A stretch of DNA of 64,000 nucleotides from Stegostoma tigrinum (Eukaryota). The notes below the pieces were generated by a model. That model saw nothing but the letters and a program-made list of their open reading frames with translations, made no database searches and had not been told where the DNA came from. Positions 6,011-52,072 of the stretch are shown in pieces. The translations under genes were made by a program, and so were the position numbers. The first letter of the stretch is position 1. Each line of letters begins with the position of its first letter. Where the stretch lies: contig NC_081355.1 of NCBI RefSeq assembly GCF_030684315.1, positions 25,259,316 through 25,323,315 of the forward strand, given 5' to 3'.

Positions 6011-6014
6011 TAAC

Positions 6015-7478
6015 TCACTGGGGGAGGAGGCTCCACAAATGACCCCATCCTCAATGTTGGAAGAGCCCAGCACATCAGTCCAAAAGTTGAGGATGAATCA
6101 TTCACAGCATTATTCAAGCAGAAGTGCCAAATGAATTATCCATCTCGGCCTCCTCCAGTGGTCCTCAGCATTACAGATACCAGTCTTCAGCCAATTCGAT
6201 TCACTCTACATGATATCAAGAAATGGTTGGAGACACTGGTTACTGCAAAGGCTCCAGACTCTGACAACATTCTGGCAATAGTACTGAAGATTTGTGCTCC
6301 AGAACTTGCCACTCCCTTAGCCAAGCTGTTCCAGTACAGTTACAACACTGGTATCTACCCAACAAAGTGGAAAGTTGCCCATGAATGTCCTGCACACAAA
6401 AAGCAGGCCAAATCCAACCTGATCAATTATTACCCCATCAGTCTACTCTCAATCATCAGTCAAGTGATGGAAGGTGTTCTCTACAGTGCAATCAAGCAGC
6501 ACCTGCTCAGAAATAACCTGCTCAGTGATGCACAATTTGTGTTCCGCCAGGGCCACTCAGCTCCTGATCTAATTACAGCCGTGGTTCAAACAAGGACAAA
6601 GAAGCTGAATTCCAGAGGGGAGGTGAATGTAATAGCCCTTGACTTCAAGGCTGCATTCCACCAAGTGTGGTGTCAAGGAGCCCCAGCAAAACTGAGCATC
6701 AGAGGCAAGCTCTCCAGTAGTTGGAGTCGTACCTGGCATGAAGGAAGATGGCTGAAGTTGCAGGAGGTCAGACATCTCAGCTCCAAGACATCTCTGCAGG
6801 AGTTCCTCAGGGTAGTGTCCTAGGCTCAACCATCTTCAGCTGCTTCATCAATGACCTTCCCTCTACCATAAGGTCATAGTGGGGATGTTTGTTGACGATT
6901 GCACAATGTTCAGCACCGTTCATGACTCCTCAGATACTGAAGCATTCCATGTTCAAATGCAATGAGATCTGGCCAACATCCAGGCTTGGGCTGTCAAGTG
7001 GCAAGTGGCATTCGTGCTACCCAAATGCCAGGCAATGACCATCACAAATAAGAGGCAATTTAACCATCACTATTCGATGGTATTACAATCCCCCAATTCG
7101 ACATCCTCGGGGTTATCACTGACCAAAAGTTCAACTGGACTCAGCATATAAACACAGTGGCTTTAACAGCAGGCCAGAAGTGAGGAATACTGCAGCGAGT
7201 AACTCACTTCTTGGCTCCTCAAAGCCTGTCTACCATTTACAAGGCACAAGTCAGGAGTGTGTTGGAATACTCCGCATTTGCCTGGATGATTGCAGCCCCA
7301 ACAACACTCAAGACGCTTGATACCATCCATGACAAGGCAGGCTGCTTGACTGGCACTACATCCACAAGTATCCTTTCACTTCAGTACTATCTACAAGATG
7401 CACTGCAGAAATTCACCAAAGATCCTCAGACAGCACCTTCCAAACCCACTACCACTTCCATCTAGAAAGACAAGGGCC
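6015..7478 (+). mobile_element. CR1-clade LINE ORF2 reverse transcriptase remnant (second family)
   Basis: ORF 6131-6823 contains NYYPISLLSIISQVME, QFVFRQGHS and ALDFKAAF. GVPQGSVLG and FVDD motifs follow after frameshifts and stops. Confidence 0.9.
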
Positions 7479-7479
7479 T

Positions 7480-8145
7480 ATACAGCTGTAACATCACATC
7501 CGAACTCCTTAATGCACTCACCAATATAGGCAAGCATACCATATGCCTCTTCACTACACTACCTGTGACTCCACCTTCGAGGAACAAGAACCTACACCCC
7601 CAGTGTGTCTTCATTTGGCAACACCCCCAAGGACCCTACCATTAAGTTTATAAGTCCTGCCTTGATCAGCCTTACCAAAATGCAACATCTCATACTCATC
7701 TAAATTAAACTCCATCTGCTACTCTTTGGCACATTAATCCATCTGATCAAGGTCCTGCTGTACTCTCAGGTAACCTTCTTCACTGTCCACTACACCAACA
7801 ATTTTGGTGCCATCCACAAACTTACTAAACATACCTCCTATATTTACATCCAAATCATTTATGGAAATGACAAAAAGCAGTAGACTCCAGCACCGATCCT
7901 TGCAGCACACTACTGATCACAGGCCTTCAGTCTGAAAATCAACCCTCCAACACCACCTTCTTTCTCATACCTTCAAGCCGATTTAGTATCCAAATGGCTA
8001 GCTCTCTCTGGATTTCAAGTGATCTAACCTAGCTAACCAGTCTACCATGCACAGCCTCAAACAGTTTGCTGAAGTCCATATAGACAATGTCCAACGTCCA
8101 CCATCTGCCTTCCATTTTCTGTCACTGCTTCAAAAAAACTCAATC
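7480..8145 (-). mobile_element. CR1 LINE RT fragment
   Basis: Reverse complement encodes YMDFSK, GSVL and VSKFVDGTKIVGVVDSEEG-like CR1 motifs. Confidence 0.8.
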
Positions 8146-24295: not shown

Positions 24296-24355
24296 GTAAC
24301 GTCATGGAAGTTATCTTTGAAATACATACGTTTGCCCATGTAAGCTGAAACTAGT

Positions 24356-24494
24356 TGACGTTTCGGGCCTAGACCCTTTCTAGGCCCAAAACATCAGCTT
24401 TTGTGCTCCCAAGATGATGCTCGGCCTGCTGTGTTCATCCAGCTCCACACTTTGTGATCTCGGATTCTCCAGCATCTGCAGTTCCCATTATCTC
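24356..24494. mobile_element. Non-autonomous PLE fold-back element (short left arm)
   Basis: Inverted hammerhead halves followed by a full arm with tail; TSD TAAGCTGAAA(C/G)TAGT at 24341-24355 and 24495-24509. Confidence 0.85.
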
Positions 24495-26149
24495 TAAGCT
24501 GAAAGTAGTGTTCGGATTCATTCATGTAATGTTCATTTATGTAATGAAATGACAAAATAAGAGGATATCCGGACCTCTTCCAGCAGCCAACAAAGCTCTA
24601 AGATGACTTCCCTGCTAACCATACCTTCCAGAGCCATTGTTTTATGTTCAAAACTGTCTTTTGGACTCTCTGAACATAATAGGTGGGTACCATTTCTTTG
24701 TTAGGACAGTTAGCAACTGGGAAAGGAAATCTTGATGCAAACTTGAGAAACACATTTGGACAGTTGTGCTTCTGACAATTGCAGTTAGGAGGGACTTGTC
24801 AGATGAGGACAGGGATTTTTGGTTAGTCCATTTGAAACAAAGATGTTTGTTTTGTATCTGCCCTTTGGTGAGTATTGATCAAGTATTAGCAGCCTGTGAA
24901 TGGGGCCTAAAACTGGAACTTCTGGCTTAGAGGTACGGACACAACCCATTGAGCCACTAGACATCCATTGAAGGAGAGGTTACTCTAATTTCTACTCATG
25001 ATTGTGGGTTTTTAAATTTTTCATAGGGTTTTATAACCATGAAAAACTTCCATGCCAAGTAAATGCCAGTAATACCCAGTAAAATCTGAAGCAGTGTAAC
25101 CAGTTAGCAATTTGCAGTCCATTGTCATCCTAGTTGATTGAGATTAGGTTGGAAATTTACCATCAGTCTATAGCTATCAGAAATTCATCTTAATTGGCAG
25201 AACATTCAGCAGACATGAAAAGTTATCACTTTATGTCCTCTGTTTCCAGACAATTGATCCACGAGTTGTTTTTCCCCTTTCTCCTTTACTTTGAAAAACA
25301 TAATTTTTGCAGAGATTTGTCTTTTTTGTCTGTGTGTAAGCAAGTGTAATATTAGGGGGTGTCGTTTTAATTACAGATCACTTTTTAAGAGATACCCAGC
25401 ATTTTTCATTTACTTTAAGAGTAAGTTTTGTAATGAATGGATTATTTTGATTTTATCAAAGAATCCTAATAGACAGTTATTTTTGATTGTGGCACTAAAG
25501 TGAAGCAATAGGCTATTTTGGCAGTTGAATCAACAAATGCTGATAATATTGCTGGTGGAGCAATAGATCTTGATTGTAAGATATAGAAGTAGATTTAGGC
25601 CATTTGGTCGATCAAGCTTTCTCCATTATTCGATATGTTTCTCAATCCCATTCTCCTGTCTGCTACCCATAACCTTTGATCCCCTTATTAATTATCAGCG
25701 CATTGCTCCCTTCTGAATCATGACAAATGTTATTCCTTCATGTCATTAGAAATTTCTGGGTTTTCAATATAATTCACTCTTAAGATGTGCCGTGTTATTT
25801 TACATTACCGAGTTAACAAATGCCATACCACAGCATTCATCAAGTACAAGTTAGAATACAACTCCAGTTGGAGAAGCATACCCAATTATTTTCCAACTAG
25901 CTAGCATTTGTATACAAGGTGTCTTTGAGATATTTTTGTACCCACTTGGTCAGAAATGTTATTATACTGGAACAGGTGGGACTTGAACCTGGGCCCCCTG
26001 GTTCAGAGTTAGAAACATCACCCAAGCACCATGACAGCTCTTCAAGGTGGCTTTGACTATTGTTTCTCCATAGCAGGCAAATTTTAGGAAACTATATCGA
26101 ACAAACACTGTAGAAACCTGGTGATCTTTGAGAGTAATGTAACAAGTAG

Positions 26150-27054: not shown

Positions 27055-27285
27055 AGAGAGATAATGGGAACTGCAGATGCTGGAGAATCCAAGACAACAA
27101 AATGTGAGGCTGGATGAACACAGCAGGCCAAGCAGCATCCCAGGAGCACAAAAGCTGACGCCTCGGGCCTAGACCCTTCATCAGAGAGCCTCTCTGATGA
27201 AGGGTCTAGGCCCGAGGCGTCAGCTTTTGTGCTCCTGGGATGCTGCTTGGCCTGCTGTGTTCATCCAGCCTCACATTTTGTTGTC
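27055..27285. mobile_element. Non-autonomous PLE fold-back element with mirrored A-to-G changes
   Basis: Perfect inverted arms centred at about 27189; exact TSD AGGGAAGAGGGACTG at 27040-27054 and 27286-27300. Confidence 0.95.
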
Positions 27286-28362
27286 AGGGAAGAGGGACTG
27301 GTTGGTTTTCATTTAAGGAGAGTTAGTGAGCTTCGGAGCTAACCAATGTACAAAACATCCCTTAATATACAATAATTCCCTGAATTGTTTAATGAATCTG
27401 TTTCTGCTCTTTGTTTTCTATCTATCAGTAAATATGCATAAATTGTAAGAATGCACTGCCCTGGCATTCACATTATGTTTACTTCTTTGTAGCAATTAAG
27501 GAAAACTGAACAAAAATATTCAGGATTTAGTTGATTTATAAATGATGATAATTGTAGATAATTGTGTTTGGTATTAAAGCATTAGATCAAGCCAGCAGAG
27601 CTTCGAAGGAATGAACAGAGTAGAAGATGATGTGTGAAACCAATCAGAGAGGATTCTTGTGGCAAACACAACATTGTAACTGTAATGACAGATCCTTTTG
27701 TTAGACGATGAATTGGCAGGAGCAAGAGGACATCACAGTCACAGGGTGCTGCTGAAATTTATTGGAACGATACCAAGGATGATGGGTTTCAATTGTGCAG
27801 AGAGTCAAAAGCTGATGAGTTTGTTCTTGTTAGAACAGAGAAATTAAAATAGAGATTTTACAGGAATCTTCACAATGTGTTTTGATAGAATGATGAAATC
27901 AAAACTATTTTCATTGATAGGATGCTCAATAACTATAAAAACACAGAATTAACGCTATTGGTTCAAGAACCAGAGGAAAGTGAGAAACATTCTTCTTTTA
28001 GACAATGAGTTATTGTGATCTGAAGTGCAATGCAGATGGAATCAGATTCATCAGTAATTTCAAGAAAAGGATGATCAAATTCATTATATTTTACTGTATA
28101 CTTCAAAATGAAAAAGAAAGTAGGAATGTGAGGAAAGAATAAACATGTCTTACCAATTACATAATTCCCATGTTGTCAACTTTTACTGTTACACAATTTG
28201 GCTTTGTAGCTGGATAAGTTTTAGAAGGGTGCTGAAAGTTGTTGGGCAGCTGTTCCTGATGACTTCCAGCGTGTCCAAGGCTGACCATTATGTAGTGAAG
28301 GATAATATTTTGGGCATGTCTTGTACGTGCTGGAAACATGTACACTGGCCAGATCATAATGT

Positions 28363-29690: not shown

Positions 29691-31039
29691 ACCATCTCTG
29701 GGAAAGAAGAAAAAGAACAGGAGGCATTCAGAACAACAGCAACTGAGATGTGTTGTCCATAATCATCTAATAAGACTTATGTTCCTGTATGAAAAGGATT
29801 TCCATTGTTGCTTCACATTTCCCCATCCTTATGTTGCAAATCATTTCAGCATTGTCTGTCTTAAAACTCTGATATAAAACTACAAAAAAACACAAAACAA
29901 CCATTCCGCGTCAATTTTGTACCAGCAGCATTTCTAATAATACAAACAATGCTCAAGTATTTACCCTTGTACTTTTCTCTTTCTAGAAGTGCATTTGCCT
30001 GGCTTGATGCTCTTATGCAGTGCTAGACTAGGACTGTAGCACGGCTGCTTTTTCTCTTTATCAGGAAGACTACTTTTGGCCTTGAAGGATGGTTTTGAAC
30101 CACTCTGAGCCCTGAGGAAGAATATTTGAAATACAGTATCTCTGCTTGGGTGACAGCAGTCTGGGCTGGTCTGCAACAGAAGGGACAGTGGTGGAATAGC
30201 TGTGAATGCTGTCACAGAGAGAGAGGACACTAGGTTCTTGCATCATGGAGACTGTGTCACTTCCCTGGGCAGCTAGATCGAGTAATCTGCTAAAGCACAG
30301 ATTGAGTGCAGTTAAGTCTCCTCTAGCTTTTTAAAACACAAAGGCAATAAGCTAGGTTTGCATGGATCTCATGATCTTACTCTGAGCTTGGCCCACTATA
30401 GTCTTCAGATGTTCGGTTGATTCTACATGTCCTGAAATGGAATCTGAGATGCTGGCCATCTGATGGTTTGTGACGCCTTGACCTTTGAACATTCTCTTGG
30501 AGTTAGCTATCATTAGAATCAGAGAATAGTTGGACAGCACAGAAGGAGGACCATTTGACTTGTTGTATCTGTGCCATGTTTCCACAGCAATTCTGGGTGG
30601 ATGGACACCCATCTCTGCACTTTCAATTTCCTTTCAATAATCAAGAAACTCAACAGCGTAAAAAGTCAACTGATAAAACATAGTCAAACTAGTAAGTATC
30701 CATTATGGCCCATGGAATGGCTGTATCATCCATCAAGCTTCTCTCCACATGCAAACACTTCTTCCACAGAAGGTCCCTCCATGGTCAATGGCTACACTCT
30801 TCTTGAGGTCACCACTCAAGCAACTTGGCATCAGCAAAGCATCAGCCTCAAAATAATATCATGCTTGCTCTTTGCTCAGCTCAGGCAACATTTCAGGTCT
30901 CGAAATATGTATTTTAGAAGCTGAGGGACAGTTAGGAGTTGAGTTTCTGGAAGATCCATTTTTGCTGATAGTAATGCATCTTACATTTCTTTACAGGCTT
31001 TTTAACACTGACATAGAACCAGGCATCGTCTGGGTCTTT

Positions 31040-31937
31040 AATACAGTGTGAAGCTGGAGTACCACCACAGGCCAGGCAGCATCAGAGGAGCAGGAAGGTT
31101 GACGTTTCGGGTCTGGACCTTCTTCAGATATGGGGAGGGGAAAGGGAGCTCTGAAATAAGTAGAGAGAGGATGGGTGGGGCTGGAGAAACTAGGTGGGAT
31201 GGCAATAGGTGAGTGCAGGTAGGCAGTGATGGGGATTGGTCAGTGAAGTGAGCGGAGCGGATAGGTGCTAGAGAAGACGGACAGGTTAAGGAAATGGGGA
31301 TGAGAGGGAGGTAAATAGGAGAGAAGACGCACAGGTCAAGGAGGCGGAGATGAGAGGGAGGCTTGGTCATGGGATGAGGCTGGGCTGGGGAGATTTTGAA
31401 TCTAATAAAAGCCACACTGAGACCATTGGACTGTAGGTTCCCCAGGTGGAATATAAGGTGCTGCTTCTTCAGTTTCCGGGTGGCGTCGTTGTGACACTGG
31501 AGGAGGCCCAGAATGGACATGTCATTCAGGGAGCGGGAGGGGGAATGGAAGTGGTTTGCGACTGGATGGTGTTGTCGTTTGTTGCGAACTGAGCGCAGGT
31601 GCTCTACAAAGCAGTCTCTGAGCCTCTGCTTGGTCTCAGTGATGTAGAGATCCCATCCTTGACCTGTCCATCTTCTCTCCCACCTATCTGCACCTCCAAC
31701 CTCACTGACCAATCCCCACCATTCCTACCTGCACTCACCCATCACCATCCCACCTACCTTCCCCAGCCCCACCCCTCCTCTCCATTTATTTCATAACTCC
31801 TTTCCCCCTCCCTCATTTCGGAAGAAGGCACCTGAACCTAAATGTCAACATCCCTGCCCCTCTGATGCTGCCTGGCCTGTTGTGTTCCTCCAGCTGCACA
31901 CTGTATTACCTCTGACTCAAGCATCAGTAGTTCTTAC
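31040..31937 (-). mobile_element. Older PLE copy with inversion (GIY-YIG fragment and two opposed terminal repeats)
   Basis: Minus strand LYITETKQRLRDCFVEHLRSV...PVANHF; inversion junction at about 31650; TSD CATC(G/T)TCTGGGTCTTT at 31024-31039 and 31938-31953. Confidence 0.9.
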
Positions 31938-32050
31938 CATCTTCTGGGTCTTTGCTGTTTTTAGTGCACAGGATTTTTAGCACTACTTTACTGGTAGGCG
32001 GCTTCTGCATTTTAGCATCCTTTTTAGTTCAGAAAAGCAATGAATCTTTG

Positions 32051-37862: not shown

Positions 37863-38079
37863 CAATTGCTCTGTCTCTTTCAAATCACCGAGCCTTTCTG
37901 TGAATACCAGAGAAGCTACAAGTTTTGCTCTTCCAAATCATTCTCGAGGGCTAAATCAACTATTCCTATAAGCTCGTAGAGAGAGATAATGGGAACTGCA
38001 GATGCTGGAGATTCCAAGATAATAAAATGTGAGGCTGGATGAACACAGCAGGCCAAGCAGCATCTCAGGAGCACAAAAG

Positions 38080-38111
38080 CTGACGTTTCGGGCCTAGACC
38101 CTTCATCAGAG
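38080..38111 (-). ncRNA. Minimal hammerhead ribozyme motif
   Basis: Reverse complement CTCTGATGAAGGGTCTAGGCCCGAAACGTCAG; intact core. Confidence 0.75.
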
Positions 38112-38277
38112 AGGGGGATGGGGGGAGGGAACTGGAATAAATAGGGAGAGAGGGGGAGGCGGACCGAAGATGGAGAGCAAAGAAGATAGGTGGAGAGGGT
38201 GTAGGTGGGGAGGTAGGGAGGAGATAGGTCAGTCCAGGGAAGACGGACAGGTCAAGGAGGTGGGATGAGGTTAGTAC

Positions 38278-39096
38278 GCCCTTGACCGCGTCTCCCGCAT
38301 TTCCCGCGACACATCCCTCACACCCCGCCCCCGCCACAACCGCCCCAAGAGGATCCCCCTCGTTCTCACACACCACCCTACCAACCTCCGGATACAACGC
38401 ATTATCCTCCGACACTTCCGCCATTTACAATCCGACCCCACCACCCAAGACATTTTTCCATCCCCACCCCTGTCTGCTTTCCGGAGAGACCACTCTCTCC
38501 GTGACTCCCTTGTTCGCTCCACACTGCCCTCCAACCCCACCACACCCGGCACCTTCCCCTGCAACCGCAGGAAATGCTACACTTGTCCCCACACCTCCTC
38601 CCTCACCCCCATCCCAGGCCCCAAGATGACATTCCACATTAAGCAGAGGTTCACCTGCACATCTGCCAATGTGGTATACTGCATCCACTGTACCCGGTGC
38701 GGCTTTCTCTACATTGGGGAAACCAAGCGGAGGCTTGGGGACCGCTTTGCAGAACACCTCCGCTCAGTTCGCAACAAACAACTGCACCTCCCAGTCGCAA
38801 ACCATTTCCACTCCCCCTCCCATTCTCTTGATGACATGTCCATCATGGGCCTCCTGCACTGCCACAATGATGCCACCCGAAGGTTGCAGGAACAGCAACT
38901 CATATTCCGCCTGGGAACCCTGCAGCCATATGGTATCAATGTGGACTTCACCAGTTTCAAAATCTCCCCTTCCCCCACTGCATCCCTAAACCAGCCCAGT
39001 TCATCCCCTCCCCCCACTGCACCACACAACCAGCCCAGCTCTTCCCCCCCACCCACTGCATCCCAAAACCAGTCCAACCTGTCTCTGCCTCCCTAA
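38278..39096 (+). CDS. PLE ORF C-terminus, 5'-truncated: Cys linker and GIY-YIG endonuclease
   Basis: Open frame with CNRRKCYTCPH and NVVYCIHCTRCGFLYIGETKRRLGDRFAEH; matches the 43794-44765 copy. Confidence 0.9.
   Translation, partial: ALDRVSRISRDTSLTPRPRHNRPKRIPLVLTHHPTNLRIQRIILRHFRHLQSDPTTQDIFPSPPLSAFRRDHSLRDSLVRSTLPSNPTTPGTFPCNRRKCYTCPHTSSLTPIPGPKMTFHIKQRFTCTSANVVYCIHCTRCGFLYIGETKRRLGDRFAEHLRSVRNKQLHLPVANHFHSPSHSLDDMSIMGLLHCHNDATRRLQEQQLIFRLGTLQPYGINVDFTSFKISPSPTASLNQPSSSPPPTAPHNQPSSSPPPTASQNQSNLSLPP
38966..39080 (+). repeat. Three imperfect ~39-bp tandem units at the PLE ORF end
   Basis: CCCACTGCA..AACCAGCCCAG repeated, encoding PTASLNQPSSS / PTAPHNQPSSS / PTASQNQSN. Confidence 0.8.
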
Positions 39097-39097
39097 C

Positions 39098-40681
39098 TGA
39101 TGTACTGAAAATTTTGTCAAACATTAAGATTGACAAGTCGCCAGGCCCGGATCAGATTTGTCCTCGGCTGCTTTGGGAAGCGAGAAATGCAATTGCTTCG
39201 CCACTTGCGAAGATCTTTGCATCCTCGCTCTCCACTGGAGTCGTACCTGAGGACTGGAGAGAGGCAAATGTAATTCCTCTCTTCAAGAAAGGAAATAGGG
39301 AAATCCCCGGCAATTATAGACCGGTAAGTCTCACGTCTGTCGTCTGCAAGGTGTTAGAAAGGATTCTGAGGGATAAGATTTATGACCATCTGGAAGAGCA
39401 TGGCTTGATCAAATACAGTCAACACGGCTTTGTGAGGGGTAGGTCATGCCTTACAAACCTTATCGAGTTTTTTGAGGATGTGACTAGTAAGGTTGATGAG
39501 GGTCAAGCTGTGGATGTGGTGTATATGGACTTCAGTAAGGCATTTGATAAGGTTCCCCATGGAAGGCTCATTCAGAAGGTCAGGAGGAATGGGATACAGG
39601 GGAACTTAGCTGCTTGGATACAGAATTGGCTGGCCAACAGAAGACAGCGAGTGGTAGTAGAAGGAAAATATTCTGCCTGGAAGTCAGTGGTGAGTGGGGT
39701 TCCACAGGGCTCTGTCCTTGGGCCTCTACTGTTTGTAATTTTTATTAATGACTTGGACGAGGGAATTGAAGGATGGGTCAGCAAGTTTGCAGACGACACA
39801 AAGGTCGGAGGTGTCGTTGACAGTGTAGAGGGCTGTTGTAGGCTGCAGCGGGACATTGACAGGATGCAGAGATGGGCTGAGAGGTGGCAGATGGAGTTCA
39901 ACCTGGATAAATGCGAGGTGATGCATTTTGGAAGGTCGAATTTGAAAGCTGAGTACAGGATTAAGGATAGGATTCTTGGCAGCGTGGAGGAACAGAGGGA
40001 TCTTGGTGTGCAGATACATAGATCCCTTAAAATGGCCACCCAAGTGGACAGGGTTGTTAAGAAAGCATATGGTGTTTTGGCTTTCATTAACAGGGGGATT
40101 GAGTTTAAGAGTCGTGAGATCTTGTTGCAGCTCTATAAAACTTTGGTTAGACCGCACTTGGAATACTGCGTCCAGTTCTGGGCGCCCTATTATAGGAAAG
40201 ATGTGGATGCTTTGGAGAGGGTTCAGAGGAGGTTTACCAGGATGCTGCCTGGACTGGAGGGCTTATCTTATGAAGAGAGGTTGACTGAGCTCGGTCTCTT
40301 TTCATTGGAGAAAAGGAGGAGGAGAGGGGACCTAATTGAGGTATACAAGATAATGAGAGGCATAGATAGAGTCGATAGCCAGAGACTATTTCCCAGGGCA
40401 GAAATGGCTAGCACGAGGGGTCATAGTTTTAAGCTGGTTGGTGGAAAGTATAGAGGGGATGTCAGAGGCAGGTTCTTTACGCAGAGAGTTGTGAGAGCAT
40501 GGAATGCGTTGCCAGCAGCAGTTGTGGAAGCAAGGTCATTGGGGTCATTTAAGAGACTGCTGGACATGCATATGGTCACAGAAATTTGAGGGTGCATCCA
40601 TGAGGATCAATGGTCGGCACAACATTGTGGGCTGAAGGGCCTGTTCTGTGCTGTACTGTTCTATGTTCTATGTTCTATGTT
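39098..40681 (+). mobile_element. Young 5'-truncated CR1 LINE inserted in the PLE
   Basis: Uninterrupted ORF2 half, (GTTCTAT)n tail and flanking CTAAC duplication; the empty site is visible in the 43441-44768 copy. Confidence 0.95.
39114..40589 (+). CDS. CR1 ORF2 reverse transcriptase domain (endonuclease missing)
   Basis: 491-aa open frame with KSPGPD, NYRPVSLTS, YMDFSKAFDKVPH, GVPQGSVLGP and KFADD. Confidence 0.95.
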   Translation: MSNIKIDKSPGPDQICPRLLWEARNAIASPLAKIFASSLSTGVVPEDWREANVIPLFKKGNREIPGNYRPVSLTSVVCKVLERILRDKIYDHLEEHGLIKYSQHGFVRGRSCLTNLIEFFEDVTSKVDEGQAVDVVYMDFSKAFDKVPHGRLIQKVRRNGIQGNLAAWIQNWLANRRQRVVVEGKYSAWKSVVSGVPQGSVLGPLLFVIFINDLDEGIEGWVSKFADDTKVGGVVDSVEGCCRLQRDIDRMQRWAERWQMEFNLDKCEVMHFGRSNLKAEYRIKDRILGSVEEQRDLGVQIHRSLKMATQVDRVVKKAYGVLAFINRGIEFKSREILLQLYKTLVRPHLEYCVQFWAPYYRKDVDALERVQRRFTRMLPGLEGLSYEERLTELGLFSLEKRRRRGDLIEVYKIMRGIDRVDSQRLFPRAEMASTRGHSFKLVGGKYRGDVRGRFFTQRVVRAWNALPAAVVEARSLGSFKRLLDMHMVTEI

Positions 40682-40907
40682 CTAACCGGTTCTTCCTCTC
40701 ACCCATCCCTTCCTCCCACCCCCAGCCGCACCCCCAGCTACCTACTAACCTCATCCCACCTCCTTGACCTGTCCGTCTTCCCTGGACTGACCTATCCCCT
40801 CCCTACCTCCCCACCTACACCCTCTCCACCTATCTTCTTTGCTCTCCATCTTCGGTCCGCCTCCCCCTCTCTCCCTATTTATTCCAGTTCCCTCCCCCCA
40901 TCCCCCT

Positions 40908-40939
40908 CTCTGATGAAGGGTCTAGGCCCGAAACGTCAG
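40908..40939 (+). ncRNA. Minimal hammerhead ribozyme motif
   Basis: CTGATGA (40910-40916), A, stem II GGGT-CTAG-GCCC, GAAA (40930-40933), CGTC; predicted cleavage after C40937. Confidence 0.75.
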
Positions 40940-41899
40940 CTTTTGTGCTCCTGAGATGCTGCTTGGCCTGCTGTGTTCATCCAGCCTCACATTTTATTAT
41001 TCCTATAAGCTACCTATTGACTACGCCAACAGTTACCATTCCAGCCATTAGGTCACCCTCTAGGTGTATCTAAAATAAAAGCATTTACTCCCTGCTAACA
41101 CCATGTACTAAAACTTTGGCAATCAAGTTGCTCACATGAGGATAATTAGTTTGAGTGGCTCCTGTAATTTTGTGCATGACTATAGAATTACTTGTCATTT
41201 GAGGAATATCTTGTTGACAAGAATTCCCTTTGGTTCTCATGTACCTTGTTTACTTGCCTTGCACACACAACAGTTTATATTTGATCTCACTGCTGTTGTC
41301 AGAGGCACAGCTTAGTATGTGGTACTGCTGGCTGGTTGTACTTCTTTCTCTGCACTGCCTTTACGTATGCCTATACCTCACAACTTCCAGAAATTTGTAC
41401 AAACATGTCCCACCTTATGACAATGGTAAAACTTCAGACATCTCTTCCACCCTTAGCACTCTCGTTTCATGCCTGAGGAAGTCTTTCGGGAATCTTCACA
41501 ACTGTCCCTTCTTGTCCCTGGTTATTTTTCTTATTTCTTGTATTTGTGATTGTGATGAGAAACGGATTGGGTTTGTGGACCAGGTTACAATTGTCAAACA
41601 CTTCAGCTGCCTTTCTCGTTGTTGCAAGCTCTTGGTTTTCTTTATGAGATTCTATCAATTTATACAATGAAGTCTTAAATTCTTCTCGGAAAAGGATCTC
41701 ATGTGCAGTCTCTACCGTCAATGCCTTCACCCAATTAGCAATGTTATTTTACTTTACCCTCTCAAATTCTATATAAGTCTGCTCTAGCTACTTAAGGGTA
41801 TACAACATTCCTGCCTGCCAGTCACAGGGAGAAACTTGTATGCACTAAGAATAACCTTAATTGCCACTTTGTAATCTATACCCAAACCAAGCTATTCCA

Positions 41900-43305
41900 C
41901 TTCGGTTACATCACAGGCATCTACATGACAATGTGGAAAATTGTCCAGATATGTCCTGTACACAAAAGCATCCAATACGGCCAATTACTGCCTCATCAAT
42001 CTACTCTACTGGTTATCAGTAAAGTGATTGAAGTTGTTAGCAATAATGCTATCATGTAGCGTCCGTTCAGCAATAATCAGCTCAGTGACTCCCACTTTGG
42101 GTTCTGCCAGGGCCACACTAATGCTTTGGTTCAAAAATAGACAAAAGAACTGAATTCCAGAGGTGAGGTGAGAGTGATAACCCTCAAAATCAAGGCTGCA
42201 TTTGACTTTGTATGGGTTTGAGGATTCCTAGCAAAACTGGAATCAATGGGAAAGAGGGAGCAGAATCTCCACTGGTTGCACTCATACCTGGCGCATAGGA
42301 AAATGGTTGTGGTTTTGGAAGGTCAGTCATCTCACCTCAAGACATTCCTGCATGAGTTCCTCTGGATAGTGTCCTAGGACCAATCATTTTCAGCTGCTTC
42401 ATCAATGACCTTCCATCCATCATAAGGTCAGAAGTGGGAATGTTTGCTGATGATTGCACAGTGCTCAACACCATTCACAACTCCTCAGACACTGAAGCAG
42501 ACCATGTTCAATTGCAACAATATCTGGACAAGATTCAGGTTCGGTCTTACAAGTGGCAAGTAACATTCATGCTACACAAATGCCAGGCAATGACCGTCTC
42601 TGAAAAGAGACAATCTAACCACAGCCTCTTGACATTCAATGGCGTTACCATCACTGAATCTTCAATTGTCAACACCCTGGGGGTTCCCATTGACTGGAAA
42701 CTCAATAGGACTCACCACATAAACATAGTGGCTACAAGAATAGCTCAGAGGCTTGGAATACTGCTGCAAGTAACTCCTCCAAGCCTGCCCACCATCTGCA
42801 AGGTATAAGAAAGGAGTGTGGTGGAACTTGCTTGAAAGAGGCAGACCTATCAACACAGAAGAAACTTGACACCATCCAGGACCAAGGAGCCCACTTCATT
42901 GGCACCACAGCCACAAACATCCAGTCCCTCCACCACCAACTCTCAGTTTAAGCAGGATGTACTATTTACTAGATGCACAGCAGAAATTCACCAAATATCC
43001 TTAAATTGTGCCTTCCAATCCTGCAACAACTTCTATCTAGAAGGGCAAGAGTAGCAGAAAAATGGAAATACCACCTACAGGCTACATGCTAAGTTATTCA
43101 ATATCCTTACTTGGAAATATATTGTTGTGCTTTCACTTTTGCCTTGATAAGATCCTGGCATGCCATTCCTAAGGGTGTTGAGCTAATCTACAGCAGTTAA
43201 GGACTGCAGCAATTGAAGAAGACAGCTCACCACCACTGTTTCAAGGACAACTTAGAATAAATGCTGGCTTACTTGTGACACTCACCTCCTACACATGAAA
43301 AAAGA
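41900..43305 (+). mobile_element. CR1-clade LINE (second family), decayed RT and 3' end
   Basis: MFADDCTVLNTIHNSSDTEA...KWQVTF; homologous to 6015-7478. Confidence 0.85.
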
Positions 43306-43539
43306 TGAAACCTCCTCAGAAAGCAAGCCATTACTTCATCAGCCATGTCTGACAGCCTGCTGTACATGAGTAGTGCTCAGCCTCCTCTTGCCATCTTGCA
43401 TACTAAGCTATCTTTGAAAAGAAATCAGAAATACCTCTGCGAGAGATGATGGGAACTGCAGATGCTGGAGATTCCAAGATAATAAAATGTGAGGCTGGAT
43501 GAACACAGCAGGCCAAGCAGCATCTCAGGAGCACAAAAG

Positions 43540-43571
43540 CTGACGTTTCGGGCCTAGACCCTTCATCAGAG
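43540..43571 (-). ncRNA. Minimal hammerhead ribozyme motif
   Basis: Same intact core as 40908-40939. Confidence 0.75.
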
Positions 43572-43793
43572 AGGGGGATGGGGGGAGGGAACTGGAATAA
43601 ATAGGGAGAGAGGGGGAGGCGGACCGAAGATGGAGAGTAAAGAAGATAGGTGGAGAGGGTGTAGGTGGGGAGGTAGGGAGGGGATAGGTCAGTCCAGGGA
43701 AGACGGACAGGTCAAGGAGGTGGGATGAGGTTAGTAGGTAGCTGGGGGTGCGGCTTGGGGTGGGAGGAAGGGATGGGTGAGAGGAAGAACCGG

Positions 43794-44765
43794 TTAGGGA
43801 GGCAGAGACAGGTTGGACTGGTTTTGGGATGCAGTGGGTGGGGGGGAAGAGCTGGGCTGGTTGTGTGGTGCAGTGGGGGGAGGGGATGAACTGGGCTGGT
43901 TTAGGGATGCAGTGGGGGAAGGGGAGATTTTGAAACTGGTGAAGTCCACATTGATACCATATGGCTGCAGGGTTCCCAGGCGGAATATGAGTTGCTGTTC
44001 CTGCAACCTTCGGGTGGCATCATTGTGGCAGTGCAGGAGGCCCATGATGGACATGTCATCAAGAGAATGGGAGGGGGAGTGGAAATGGTTTGCGACTGGG
44101 AGGTGCAGTTGTTTGTTGCGAACTGAGCGGAGGTGTTCTGCAAAGCGGTCCCCAAGCCTCCGCTTGGTTTCCCCAATGTAGAGAAAGCCGCACCGGGTAC
44201 AGTGGATGCAGTATACCACATTGGCAGATGTGCAGGTGAACCTCTGCTTAATGTGGAATGTCATCTTGGGGCCTGGGATGGGGGTGAGGGAGGAGGTGTG
44301 GGGACAAGTGTAGCATTTCCTGCGGTTGCAGGGGAAGGTGCCGGGTGTGGTGGGGTTGGAGGGCAGTGTGGAGCGAACAAGGGAGTCACGGAGAGAGTGG
44401 TCTCTCCGGAAAGCAGACAGGGGTGGGGATGGAAAAATGTCTTGGGTGGTGGGGTCGGATTGTAAATGGCGGAAGTGTCGGAGGATAATGCGTTGTATCC
44501 GGAGGTTGGTAGGGTGGTGTGTGAGAACGAGGGGGATCCTCTTGGGGCGGTTGTGGCGGGGGCGGGGTGTGAGGGATGTGTCGCGGGAAATGCGGGAGAC
44601 GCGGTCAAGGGCGTTCTCAATCACCGTGGGGGGGAAGTTGCGGTCCTTAAAGAACTTGGACATCTGGGATGTGCGGGAGTGGAATGTCTTATCGTGGGAG
44701 CAGATGCGGCGGAGGCGGAGGAATTGGGAATAGGGGATGGAATTTTTGCAGGAGGGTGGGTGGGA
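43794..44765 (-). CDS. PLE ORF C-terminal 323 aa: RT thumb, Cys linker, GIY-YIG
   Basis: SHPPSCKNSIPYSQFLRLRRICS (PLE RT thumb) is in frame with RIPLVLTHHP, CNRRKCYTC and VY..YIGET; no stops. Confidence 0.92.
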   Translation of the reverse strand, partial: SHPPSCKNSIPYSQFLRLRRICSHDKTFHSRTSQMSKFFKDRNFPPTVIENALDRVSRISRDTSLTPRPRHNRPKRIPLVLTHHPTNLRIQRIILRHFRHLQSDPTTQDIFPSPPLSAFRRDHSLRDSLVRSTLPSNPTTPGTFPCNRRKCYTCPHTSSLTPIPGPKMTFHIKQRFTCTSANVVYCIHCTRCGFLYIGETKRRLGDRFAEHLRSVRNKQLHLPVANHFHSPSHSLDDMSIMGLLHCHNDATRRLQEQQLIFRLGTLQPYGINVDFTSFKISPSPTASLNQPSSSPPPTAPHNQPSSSPPPTASQNQSNLSLPP

Positions 44766-45572
44766 GCACAGAAATACCTCTGCACCATTTTGGCCAAATT
44801 TTCAGAGGCATGCATAAATTTCAGCAGCTCCCCATTGGGTCTTGGTTTAGACTCAGATATTTACTTGTCAGAATGCTTCTTGGTCTCAGAGGCCTTTTAT
44901 TTATTTCCAGCTATTTAAACTGATATTCTCTCTCGCTACTCTTTCCCTCAACTTAATTTCTAGATCTAAATTCTTAAATTCTCTTTATTTTTTACTTCTC
45001 GCTCTGAAGTGCTATGTCTTTTTCTTCCCCCTCCCCCTGCAGTGCTGTTTATCCTCCTTTTTCTGCTCTGTGCAATTCTTCTCTTTGAAGTCTAAGTTTT
45101 TAATTCCCATTTATTTTTCCCATTTAACCAGCTTTGCAATTGAATTCTTTCAATCTCTATTAACTCACCATCTGACTGGATTCACCATTCTTCCAATTCA
45201 AAAGTTGTGCTATTGCCTCAGTTACATTGCTGTCCTAGCCTTTATTTTTAGCTCTCATTCCGAATTCTCGGCCAAACCTTGGTTATTCTTGCAAGTCATT
45301 CAGGAATAAATTTCTGTGCAGAAAATTCTTAGTGTTTGCCAAAGCCATTTTGGTATAATACTGCTCAATAAACCTAACGTATTTCCTACAACCCTTCCAA
45401 ATATTGACACCCAGCTTTCAATTAAAGTTTGCATGAGGTATCCTATTGTGAGCACCAGTTATGTTCTGACCAATATTGAGGAGTGCGCTATTGCTCTAGT
45501 CCTACAACTTCACAGGTCACAACTTAGAATACTTTTTCTGTTTATCAAGAAAACCAATTAGGTAACTTATCC

Positions 45573-45706
45573 AAGGTAACAAGGCCTAGAGCTGGATGAA
45601 CACGGCAGGCCAGGCAGCATCAGAGGAGCAGGAAAGCTGAGTTTCGGGCCTCGACCCTCTACACCTTGTTATCTCAGATTCTCCAGCATCTATAGTTCCT
45701 ACTATC
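45573..45706. mobile_element. Non-autonomous PLE fold-back element
   Basis: Minus arm joined to a short plus arm with tail; flanking repeat TAGGTAACTTA at 45559-45569 and 45707-45717. Confidence 0.85.
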
Positions 45707-46569
45707 TAGGTAACTTACCTATTTCCTTTTTTAAACAAGATCTATTAGCTGAGCTTCTTAATAAATACTATTTTATCAAAACAAAACTTATTCAGTAAAT
45801 ATGCAAGAATCAGTCAAGATTGGTTTCCTGAAGAAAAATATACATTTTTCTCAGTGGGTATTCTTGAAGACAAAACAATCAAGTGTAGAATATTCTGGAG
45901 TTTATTGCTGCAAGGTTGTGGCTAATGTGATCAAGCCACTGAAAATGCAGGGTGGTCTATGCAGTTTGCCCTGACACCACCTTGTTTCCCTGAGTGAAAT
46001 CAATGGAGTGAGGTCCAATCACATATGTGGTAGCTATTGAATGTTCTGCTGGACCTGTATCTTCAAGGCAGTTGTGACTCTTTCCACAGAGATAATCAGG
46101 TGCTCACATGCCAGAGCCATGGTTGTAATGGAAACTGTTTGAAGGACTTGTCCATCTTTTATTTCAAAATCTACTAAATGCCTCTGGAACACCATCCTCA
46201 TGTTCTTTCACCACATCTTACAGGTTCAGCACTCCAATTATATTCAAGAACACCACTTTTCTTGGAGCTCTCAGTCTGGTTGTTAGTAGGCTTTTCCAAA
46301 AATGAAACAGAGGGAAGGACTGATTATGATGGAAACATCCGAGATCAGTTAGTTTTCATGCAGGAGTAGGAGAGGTGGTCCTCAATAAGGAGTACAAAGC
46401 TTAGAGAAAAGGAAGGGCTCATAGTTCCTGAAAATGAGGGGGATGTCAGACCCTGAATTGACACATGGTGGGTGATGCTGAGGGCTGTAGTCCATCATCC
46501 TCGGTGAGATGGATATTCAGTGGCAGAGTTAGAGTCAATGATATCTGTCTGAGTGTGAGTAGCAGAGAA

Positions 46570-47045
46570 AAGATGGAGACACTTATCTTTGTGGAATGTA
46601 GGATATCATTGACTTTCTTTCTGCACTGCTGGGTGTCCCTTTCCAGAGTGGGCACAACACTGACCTCTGCTGTTATCTCTGTCCAGGATGGCTGAGTCTG
46701 TTGGTGTAGCCTCTTGCTGCAGTCATTAGGTAAAAAGGCTGAGAGAGAGAAAATGGGAGCTGCAGATGCTGGAGAATCCAAGATAACAAAGTATGAAGCT
46801 GGATGAACACAGCAGGCCAAGCAGCATCTTAGGAGCACAGAAACTGACATTTTGGGCCTCTCTGATGAAGGGTCTAGGCCCGAAACGTCAGCTTTTGTGT
46901 ACCTAAGATGCTGCTTGGCCTGCTGTGTTCATCCAGCTTCATACTTTGTTATCTAGGTAAAAAAACTGACCCCTCATTACCCCATCTACCAGTAACTCAT
47001 CACTTTACTCTAGGAAGTGTGAAGCAAATTTCTTTTGCGCCACAT
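46570..47045 (-). pseudogene. Myb/SANT-like DNA-binding gene remnant of a Harbinger transposon
   Basis: WTEITAEVSVVPTLERDTQQCRKKVNDILHSTK is a trihelix/MSANTD-type pattern; interrupted by a PLE fold-back. Confidence 0.7.
46743..46953. mobile_element. Non-autonomous PLE fold-back element with intact hammerhead (46862-46889)
   Basis: Inverted arms share the variant CTTCATAC; TSD TAGGTAAAAA(GG/AA)CTGA at 46727-46742 and 46954-46969. Confidence 0.9.
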
Positions 47046-50195: not shown

Positions 50196-50580
50196 ATCCG
50201 TTCAGGTGTACAAGATGATGAGAGGCGTAGATAGAGTGGATAGTCAGAGACTTCTTCCCAGCATCGAAATGACTATTACAGGGGAGCATAATTTTAAGGT
50301 GATTGGAGGGAGGTATAGGGGAGATGTCAGAGGTAGGTTCGTCACGCAGGGAGTGGTGGTTGTGTGTGGAATGTGCTGCCGGCAGTGGTAGTGGAGTTAG
50401 ATACTTTAGAGACTTTTAAGCGACTCTTGGATAGTAGCGGAGGATAAGACAAGGATAGGTACATGGAGGATAGTAAAATGTAGGGTATGCAGGGTAGATT
50501 GATCTTAGTAGGATAATAGGTTGGCACAACATCATGGGTCGAAGGGCCTGTACTGCGCTGTACTGTTCTATGTTCCATGT
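50196..50580 (+). mobile_element. CR1 3' fragment
   Basis: VYKMMRGVDRVDSQRLLP; 3' UTR matches 700-828. Confidence 0.85.
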
Positions 50581-52072
50581 GCTGGCACAGTAGGTAGTGT
50601 TCGGGATTGTCAAAGCTCCACACTGGCAACATTATTGTCCCTGTCCACTTTTTGCCTTTTTTCTTTATTTCTTCCTTTCTTCTTTGTCTCCAAGACCACA
50701 GCAGTGTTGGTGAGGCAGTGGCTGCAATGCCAGAGGCATGGACTGGTACTCCTGGCCGTGATGGCGGTGCCTGGAGCCTGGAGTTTAATGTGGAAAAGTG
50801 TGAGGTGATTCACTTTGGAAGGAGTAACAGGAATACAGAGTACTGGGCTGATGGTAATATTCTTGGTGGTGTGGATGAGCAGAGAGATCTTGGTGTCCAT
50901 GTACATTGATCACTGAAAGTTCCCACCCAGGTTGATAGGGTTGTTGGAAAGGAGTATGGTGTGTTAGGTTTTATTGGTAGAGGGATTAAGGTTCACAGCC
51001 ATGAGGTCATGTTGTAGCTAGACAAAACTCTGGTGTGGCCACACTTGGAGTGTTGCGCACAGTTCTGGTCACCGCATTATGGGAAGGATGTGGAAGCATT
51101 GGAAAGAGTGCCGAGGAGATTTACCAGGATGTTGCCTGGTATGGAGGGAAGGTCTTATGTGGAAAGGCTGAGGGACTTGAGGCTGTTTTCGATCGAGAGA
51201 ACAAGGTTAAGAGGTGACTTTAATAGAGACATACAAGATGACCAGAGGATTAGATTGGGTGGAGAGTGAGAGCCGTTTTCCTCGGATGGTGATGGCTAGC
51301 ACGAGGGGACATAGGTTGAAATTGAGGGGTGATAGATATAGGACAGATGTCAGAGGGAGGCTCTTTACTCAGAGTGTAGTAAGGGCGTGGAATGCCCTGC
51401 CTGCAACAGTATTAGACTTGCCAAGTTTAAGGGCATTTAAATGATCATTAGATAAACATATGGATGATAATGGAATACTGTAGGTGAGATGGGTTTCACA
51501 GTTTGGCGCAACATAGAGGGCCAAAGGGCCTGTACTGTGCTGTAATGTTCTATGTTCCATGTTCTATGACTCTTAATAGCGGTAAGCCCGGAGAGGGGAT
51601 TCCTGGCAGTGGCAGGCCTGGAGCCTGTACTCTTGCCAGTGGCGGTGTCTGGCCTGAAGACCCCTGGAAGCAATAGGCCCAGAGCCTTGACTTTTAGTGG
51701 TGAAAGTGCCCAGAGCGGGGACTCCTGACAACAGTAGACCCAAAGCGTGGACTATTACTGATGGCAGTGCCCAAAGTGGTAGCTCTTGGTGGCTGTAGCC
51801 TGGAGCCTGAATTCCTGGTGGTGTCGGCAAGGTGGCGGTGACAGCAAAACTGGGGTCTCCTGGAGCATCGAGTGTCATCGTTGTTGTTCCTGAAATTGGG
51901 ACTCCTTGAGGACTGGAACACCTTGCAGAAGCTATGAACCGAAAATGAACTCTTATCTAAGTAATTTCTTTTTATCCTCATTGTACTCAAAATGGTGCCA
52001 GATAGTGGTGACAAAACAGTTTTCACTGTATCATCAAGATACATATGACAATAAATAATTCATTCATTCATG
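50581..52072 (+). mobile_element. Non-autonomous element with Rex-like 3' tail, split by a CR1
   Basis: GGCAGTGG/CCTGGAGCC-rich body on both sides of the CR1; ends TTTCACTGTA...GACAATAAA(TTCA)n. Confidence 0.5.
50779..51568 (+). mobile_element. CR1 3' fragment
   Basis: EFNVEKCEVIHFGRSN and PHLECCAQFWSPHYGKD; GTTCTAT tail. Confidence 0.9.

Follow-up and report, generated by a model that had tools for sequence, protein, structure and literature searches.

A minimal type I hammerhead in the terminal repeats of a Penelope-like element of Stegostoma tigrinum, with a loop palindrome that is likely incidental

We find that the motif at positions 40908-40939(+) of a 64,000-nt stretch of the Stegostoma tigrinum genome (contig NC_081355.1; the whole of this stretch is called the window below) carries the sequence features that securely place it, activity apart, among the minimal type I hammerheads of Penelope-like element (PLE) pLTRs. 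The account that we hold to be probable is that this is the known PLE minimal hammerhead with a classic double hammerhead as its active form, that the element inserts mostly from uncut RNA, and that the palindrome in loop II is incidental. Both the class of motif and the proposal that it works as a dimer were put forward in 2014-2017, and what the window copy mainly adds is a cartilaginous-fish example.

Sequence features and class of the motif

Read 5' to 3' on the plus strand, the helix I 5' strand CU (40908-40909; 2 bp, with positions 1-2 covarying in homologues) leads into CUGAUGA (40910-40916) and an extra A (40917), where the published consensus is CUGANGAH. Helix II follows at 40918-40929, read from sequence and folding, with 4 bp between GGGU and GCCC around the loop CUAG; its opening pair G10.1-C11.1 (G40918-C40929) has a predicted pair probability of 0.999 in a 40-nt context and of 0.06-0.54 in longer contexts, and the entire 12-mer of helix and loop is self-complementary once G-U pairs are allowed. 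Then come GAAA (40930-40933), the loop-less palindrome ACGU (40933-40936) and C17 (40937), in keeping with the published definition of minimal hammerheads, and finally the helix I 3' strand AG (40938-40939), which monomer folding predicts to pair with the core instead. The third position beyond the two pairs of helix I sets U against C, and cleavage is predicted after C40937. CUGAUGA, the extra A, the near-palindromic stem II, GAAA, ACGU, the GUC site and a stem I of about 2 bp had all been pointed out by the first-pass annotation, and all are read at these positions. Its count of four intact copies also holds, the 28-nt core recurring exactly at 38082-38109(-), 43542-43569(-) and 46862-46889(+).

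A strict descriptor allowing up to two mismatches gave 9 matches in the window against 0.02 expected, a number reached by 0 of 100 shuffles, and a loose pattern gave 7 against 2.54 expected; in both cases the matches are copies of one dispersed repeat and not independent conservation. The four intact cores trace to three insertions, those at 38109(-) and 40910(+) being the two arms of one. The copies at 38109(-), 40910(+) and 43569(-) are ~99% identical over ~300 nt, so the agreement of these three of the four intact copies reflects youth, not selection. Rfam returned no match at the gathering threshold across the whole window and none at E<=10 over 40700-41100.

Every published sequence feature of the minimal hammerheads of metazoan PLEs, as described in the available text of Cervera & de la Pena 2014 (PMC4209133), is matched: the CUGANGA...GAAA core with an NUH cut triplet, the extra nucleotide at 9/10.1 (here A40917), the G10.1-C11.1 opening of helix II, the loop-less palindromic 15.2-16.2 with its minimal helix III, a short helix I beside the core, and a location in the pLTR, sense to the PLE ORF. 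The earlier reading of a minimal type I hammerhead in a PLE terminal repeat is thereby borne out. From a canonical type I hammerhead the motif departs in having a helix I of 2 bp rather than the ~6 bp that go with a tertiary contact between loops I and II, in lacking loop III and in matching no Rfam model.

The extra A, the loop-less ACGU helix III, the 2-bp helix I and the dimer hypothesis are already published for minimal PLE hammerheads (PMC4209133). Helix III, without a loop, cannot form in a single copy, and cleavage would therefore need a second one; the first-pass annotation was right to ask for it, and the same point is in print (PMC4209133). The available part of that paper proposes that minimal hammerheads act as dimers with low in vitro activity, monomer constructs staying uncleaved and dimers and trimers being cleaved at a low level. 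A review passage holds that small PLE hammerheads likely cleave as dimers, citing Lunse et al. (PMC6765202); to go by its title and by that citing passage, the work of Lunse, Weinberg & Breaker (RNA Biol 14:1499) concerns a diminished stem III, association with PLEs and cleavage as dimers, all of which recall the window motif.

When the rows of Fig. S3 in PMC4209133 are counted by eye, 56 in all, ACGU is present in 29, an extra nucleotide in 54, a 2-bp helix I in 6 and a loop II that is a Watson-Crick palindrome as printed in 1. The Acropora Neptune row shares with the window motif the 4-bp stem, the 4-nt loop, ACGUC and the following AGC, but has a 3-bp helix I and the non-palindromic loop UAAC. 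Those 56 rows include no cartilaginous fish, and a palindromic loop II goes undescribed as a feature in the available text of the paper. Literature searches on shark PLE hammerheads returned nothing relevant; Lunse et al. or the supplements of a preprint on non-LTR retrozymes (bioRxiv 10.64898/2026.07.22.740005) may already cover sharks. Searches on palindromic loop II together with hammerhead dimers returned no PLE work as judged by titles and the openings of abstracts.

The non-LTR retrozymes of that preprint have type I hammerheads from PLE pLTRs, one chondrichthyan genome being reported in its available text. They are tandem arrays with a hammerhead in consecutive units, whereas the window arms are dispersed singly or inverted. 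Retrozyme identity was considered and rejected on the arm positions in the window, which nowhere place hammerheads in at least two consecutive tandem units.

Two start codons lie near the motif. One AUG within the catalytic core opens a 13-codon frame (40913-40954, +) that begins inside CUGAUGA; the frame of another, at +46, runs without a stop through the tail of the 38109 arm, and this AUG may begin the ORF.

The carrier element and its insertions

The arm that bears the motif is a tail-less pLTR (40682-41000, +), the right arm of an insertion at 37981-41000 that is flanked by a 14-bp target-site duplication (TSD; left copy 37961-37974, right copy 40998-41011). Its partner is an inverted pLTR arm with a tail (37981-38276, -), holding the intact core at 38082-38109. 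The insertion also contains the end of a 5'-truncated PLE ORF with linker and GIY-YIG (38273-39097, +), 99.9% identical to the copy at 43793-44617, and, between this ORF and the pLTR, a 5'-truncated LINE (39098-40681, +) with an RT domain (RVT_1, E 2.7e-35) and a short tandem-repeat 3' end. The LINE, which we take to be HER1/CR1, has an open RT frame and sits at the stop of the PLE ORF, with a 5-nt overlap at both ends. Since the host PLE piece is 99.9% identical to a copy 2.4 kb away, the LINE and PLE insertions look very recent. A separate, one-armed and 5'-truncated PLE insertion (43440-44768, -; 15-bp TSD) comprises ORF end, pLTR, intact core (43542-43569) and tail; there the motif lies 224 nt past the stop of an ORF with a CX4CXXC linker and GIY-YIG, on the same strand. 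A two-armed head-to-head stub (46745-46957) has an intact core in its plus arm (46862-46889) and a minus arm that starts inside helix II.

In all, 20 arms were located in the window by an anchor downstream of the motif, with an intact core in 4 of the 20, and two further short arms lack the anchor. The PLE copies in the window are all 5'-truncated and without the RT core, many of them being hammerhead-only stubs. Exact TSDs of 9-16 bp flank 7 of the 8 insertions tested, and inspection by eye shows a 14-bp duplication, mismatched at one base, around the eighth.

The ORF end is 48% identical over 277 aa to the C-terminal part of protein P0006, which consists of RVT_1 followed by a GIY-YIG that passes the Pfam cut-off; on the ORF fragment itself the GIY-YIG match is weak (E 7.7e-4; 20.2 bits, below the cut-off of 22.6). 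A search with the ORF among longer proteins found 75 homologues, RT plus GIY-YIG polyproteins of which many have PF00078 and two are named from bamboo shark. Inspection of the translation gives the linker CNRRKCYTC and the residues C, C, H and H around GIY-YIG, in agreement with the CX2-5CxxC linker and the CCHH pattern. To judge from the homologues and these residues, the carrier has the EN+ Penelope-like architecture with a linker of the Neptune/Nematis type; the linker and the likeness to the Acropora Neptune hammerhead suggest Neptune rather than Nematis. In the available descriptions, EN+ PLEs of the Neptune/Nematis type have the same C-terminal GIY-YIG and CX2-5CxxC linker (PMC8557442), and EN+ PLEs also have head-to-head inverted arms, a tail on one arm and TSDs (PMC8557442, PMC3846280). 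The window differs from the published elements in holding only 5'-truncated copies.

Arrangement of the two-armed insertions

It had been proposed in the first-pass annotation that dimer-dependent cleavage is coupled to the two-armed insertions, and the arrangement of the arms speaks against this. Sister arms lie on opposite strands, head to head, in all seven two-armed insertions examined; one transcript thus contains one sense and one antisense arm, and for two such insertions fold-backs of -150 and -217 kcal/mol that bury the core are predicted in the read-through RNA. Both cores are intact in only one of the seven, and one pair (27056-27291) shares a broken core, through either a common template or later conversion. 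Intact pairs on the same strand do exist, 5.5 and 6.0 kb apart, but these are separate insertions with a near-perfect antisense arm between or beside them. Tempting as it is to pair the two inverted arms of an insertion as partners for the ribozyme, they cannot play that part.

The sister arm is the nearest or tied-nearest relative for 10 of 12 arms over +46..+88 and for 7 of 10 over +18..+88, and in five of the seven insertions each arm has its start between about -5 and +17 relative to the core. A snap-back at the loop-II axis was tried as the origin of the two arms and was rejected, 0 of the 7 two-armed insertions in the window being symmetric about the loop. The likely origin of the two arms is that priming happens twice where the DNA has a staggered cut and the products are joined via short microhomologies, with ribozyme cleavage likely a minor or regulatory step and not the producer of two arms.

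Homologous motifs and the loop palindrome

Motifs of the same size were found at at least 122 metagenome loci, from 17 of the 64 parts of the collection; left out of these counts are 1 of 127 matches, which has no flanks, and a viral-contig match (L001) with only 2 helix II pairs and no ORF match. The loci presumably represent animal host DNA. Flanks of up to 600 nt give a tblastn match to the window ORF at 19 of the 122 listed loci, with the ORF upstream on the same strand at 16 and solely in inverted position at 3. Two motifs lie close together at L014, L059, L089, L099 and L110, on opposite strands in at least four of these, which repeats the inverted layout of the PLE in other animals.

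Every hairpin has a self-complementary stem, and therefore only the loop is informative about a second palindrome. In 43 families of the listed matches, compared with shuffles that ignore relatedness and found with a search pattern that fixed the core, ACGU and the first two helix II pairs, pairing was observed in 39 families against a shuffled mean of 17.3 at helix I.1, in 38 against 20.7 at I.2, in 38 against 16.6 at II.3 and in 31 against 18.7 at II.4; the two loop pairs gave 22 against 17.7 (P 0.09) and 16 against 14.5 (P 0.32). Helix I pairs 1-2 and helix II pairs 3-4 thus stand far above both shuffled and slid controls, helix I pair 3 modestly so, and the loop pairs do not. Coarser clustering, into 23 and 16 families, gives the same picture, but II.4 loses significance at 16.

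Among the matches listed, a Watson-Crick palindromic loop II occurs in 5 of the 43 families, all singletons (3.3 expected, P 0.23), in none of the 14 multi-copy families and, counted by copy, in 5 of 126. L118, the only listed locus that blastn ties to the window pLTR, agrees with the window motif in its 2-bp helix I, and its loop is non-palindromic. Within the window, 11 of the 15 arms that cover loop II have CUAG, and GUAG, CCAG, CUCG and CGAG occur as variants. In sequencing-run contigs the listed differences inside the core are four CpG-type transitions, at 12-17% in run X9; a narrower query listed none. The palindromic loop II is likely incidental, to judge from these comparisons.

Predicted folds of monomer and dimer

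The minimum-free-energy structure of the 40-nt monomer is a rod of -11.4 kcal/mol in which helix I has a probability of 0.0; CUGAUG pairs with CGUCAG (40910-40915 with 40934-40939), which covers the core and the cut site, and the rod is predicted to be inactive. With nearest-neighbour energies, which omit core stacking, Mg2+ and protein, the classic double hammerhead comes to -5.5 kcal/mol, two monomers to -22.8 and an extended duplex through the 12-nt palindrome to -38.0. The gap by which the active dimer is less stable than the best alternative fold is 32.5 kcal/mol; among the matches listed, only 2 of 93 homologous 40-mers have one as large or larger (median 13.9). The 12-mer self-duplex is worth -22.6 kcal/mol against -3.7 per hairpin, and the 40-nt homodimer gains ~15 kcal/mol over two monomers. 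With its energy so far above those of the monomers and the extended duplex, the hammerhead of this PLE family may hardly cut at all.

The first-pass annotation took the stem II palindrome for a second dimer element suited to cleavage. This did not stand: self-complementarity of the loop is at the chance level in homologues, and in the window motif the second palindrome is predicted to favour the inactive extended duplex and to work against cleavage. Established hammerhead geometry has helix II and helix III coaxially stacked, one on either side of the core; for two strands to exchange both helices with each other in an active fold, a ring of ~24 bp would therefore have to close. The active form would be the classic double hammerhead, with helix II in cis and helices III and I in trans. 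The family is young and very abundant and makes a clean construct, in which mutants of loop II and of ACGU would tell a double hammerhead that activates apart from an extended duplex that inhibits.

State of the template RNA

None of the 20 window arms starts at the base after C17 (+28). Three begin 4-5 nt ahead of the core, and the majority of the rest within it or immediately behind it. Among the groups of 5' loose ends listed for DNA-like runs of one sample, the largest falls at position -1 relative to the core (822 contigs in X9 and 522 in X10). As no window arm starts at the cut site and many genomic copies begin a short way ahead of the core, uncut RNA is the likely template. Of the six listed joints at position -4, five carry a G just ahead, in place of the C of the element; these few junctions fit a capped RNA start there. 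The listed joints that precede a copy start at -4 end at +30 to +38 and not at C17 (+27), and hence give no support for cleavage. In one listed joint (X7, 43541 to 43442) the tail end runs directly into the nucleotide that follows the cut, which hints at occasional copying of cut RNA; the joints that restart at 43484 and 43564 are of similar depth. We consider it likely that the RNA starts a few bases before the ribozyme and is usually copied uncut and occasionally cut, most inserted copies being reverse transcripts of uncut RNA. A cut would strip ~32 capped bases ahead of the +46 frame.

The closest published parallel in these respects is PAc, a Poseidon element of Anolis, as described in the available text of Frangieh et al. 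2024 (PMC11167929). Like the window element, PAc has a hammerhead in the pLTR beside the ORF start, internal RT start sites that define the tail, and, as is likely here, unprocessed RNA as the main template. It differs in belonging to the Poseidon clade and in that its ORF starts at stem II, whereas here there are the 13-codon frame in the core and the +46 frame; protein-assisted cleavage is demonstrated for PAc. The anole hammerhead is cleaved only with protein, core mutants insert anyway in vitro, and 0 RNA-seq reads terminate at the cut (PMC11167929). The in vivo role of the PLE hammerhead is still open according to the available text of PMC8557442.

Alternative readings

A different view of the same data is that the motif is hammerhead-shaped but non-cutting in this PLE family, and is kept as a folded 5' element or as a passenger, with possible roles in protein binding, in translation control through the 13-codon upstream ORF or as an RT stop. 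We think this unlikely. It would make sense of an energy gap that few of the listed homologues match, of a helix I of only 2 bp, of the broken core shared by both arms at 27157-27221, of an upstream ORF starting inside CUGAUGA and of the in vitro insertion of anole hammerhead mutants (PMC11167929). Against it, the youngest copies have an intact core that agrees with the published consensus, covariation in helices I and II is seen among families while the core is fixed, one joint restarts at the cut site, and the energy models do without core stacking, Mg2+ and protein.

We regard as improbable, more so than a non-cutting hammerhead, that the self-complementary helix II and loop are an RNA dimerisation signal like a retroviral dimer-initiation site, by which RNAs pair head to head near their 5' ends, the ribozymes are off and a dimeric RT-endonuclease obtains one template per arm. 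If true, this would account for the head-to-head two-armed insertions, and the stability of the 12-mer self-duplex, the gain of the homodimer, the prevalence of CUAG in window arms, the start of both arms near the core in five of seven insertions and the anole PLE protein, a predicted dimer that cleaves both strands (PMC11167929), are all in its favour. Yet in the available descriptions EN+ PLEs in general have inverted arms and a tail on one side, Naiads without canonical hammerheads among them; the palindromic loop is not conserved among the listed families or copies, L118 having a non-palindromic one beside the same helix I; and the similarity of sister arms is equally explained by one template. 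Least credible, and in our estimate very improbable, is the model of the first-pass annotation in full, with both palindromes cooperating in an active dimer whose partners are insertion arms or window repeats, so that cleavage is coupled to two-armed insertion. Both palindromes exist, as do same-strand intact pairs, but the members of those pairs have TSDs of their own and an antisense arm nearby, sister arms are antisense and predicted to form long fold-back duplexes, swapping helices II and III together would close the ring described above, and the palindromy of the loop is at chance. The preferred account remains the known minimal hammerhead acting as a classic double hammerhead.

Further insertions in the window

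The two-armed stub at 24342-24510 has a short inverted arm (24356-24378) that ends 1-4 nt past the predicted cut, against the usual +73 to +98; its target duplication contains a single mismatch and is similar in sequence to the element at that point, and microhomology may explain the short arm. The insertion at 27056-27291 is a near-perfect fold-back, 98% over 101 nt with 1 nt separating the arms, which have private changes in common, the broken GAAA included; the central base could be a copied cap G. A likely eighth two-armed stub lies at 45573-45710, its plus arm being almost only tail region. An older, diverged PLE copy at 31039-31650(-) and 31772-31942(+), of ~71-79% identity, is decayed and retains an ORF remnant; its core reads CUGAAGA, and AA after the cut site could make a compensatory helix I. 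Other LINE RT fragments, likewise decayed and from two families or more, lie at 6014-7500, 42356-43050, 29-840 and 50200-51580.
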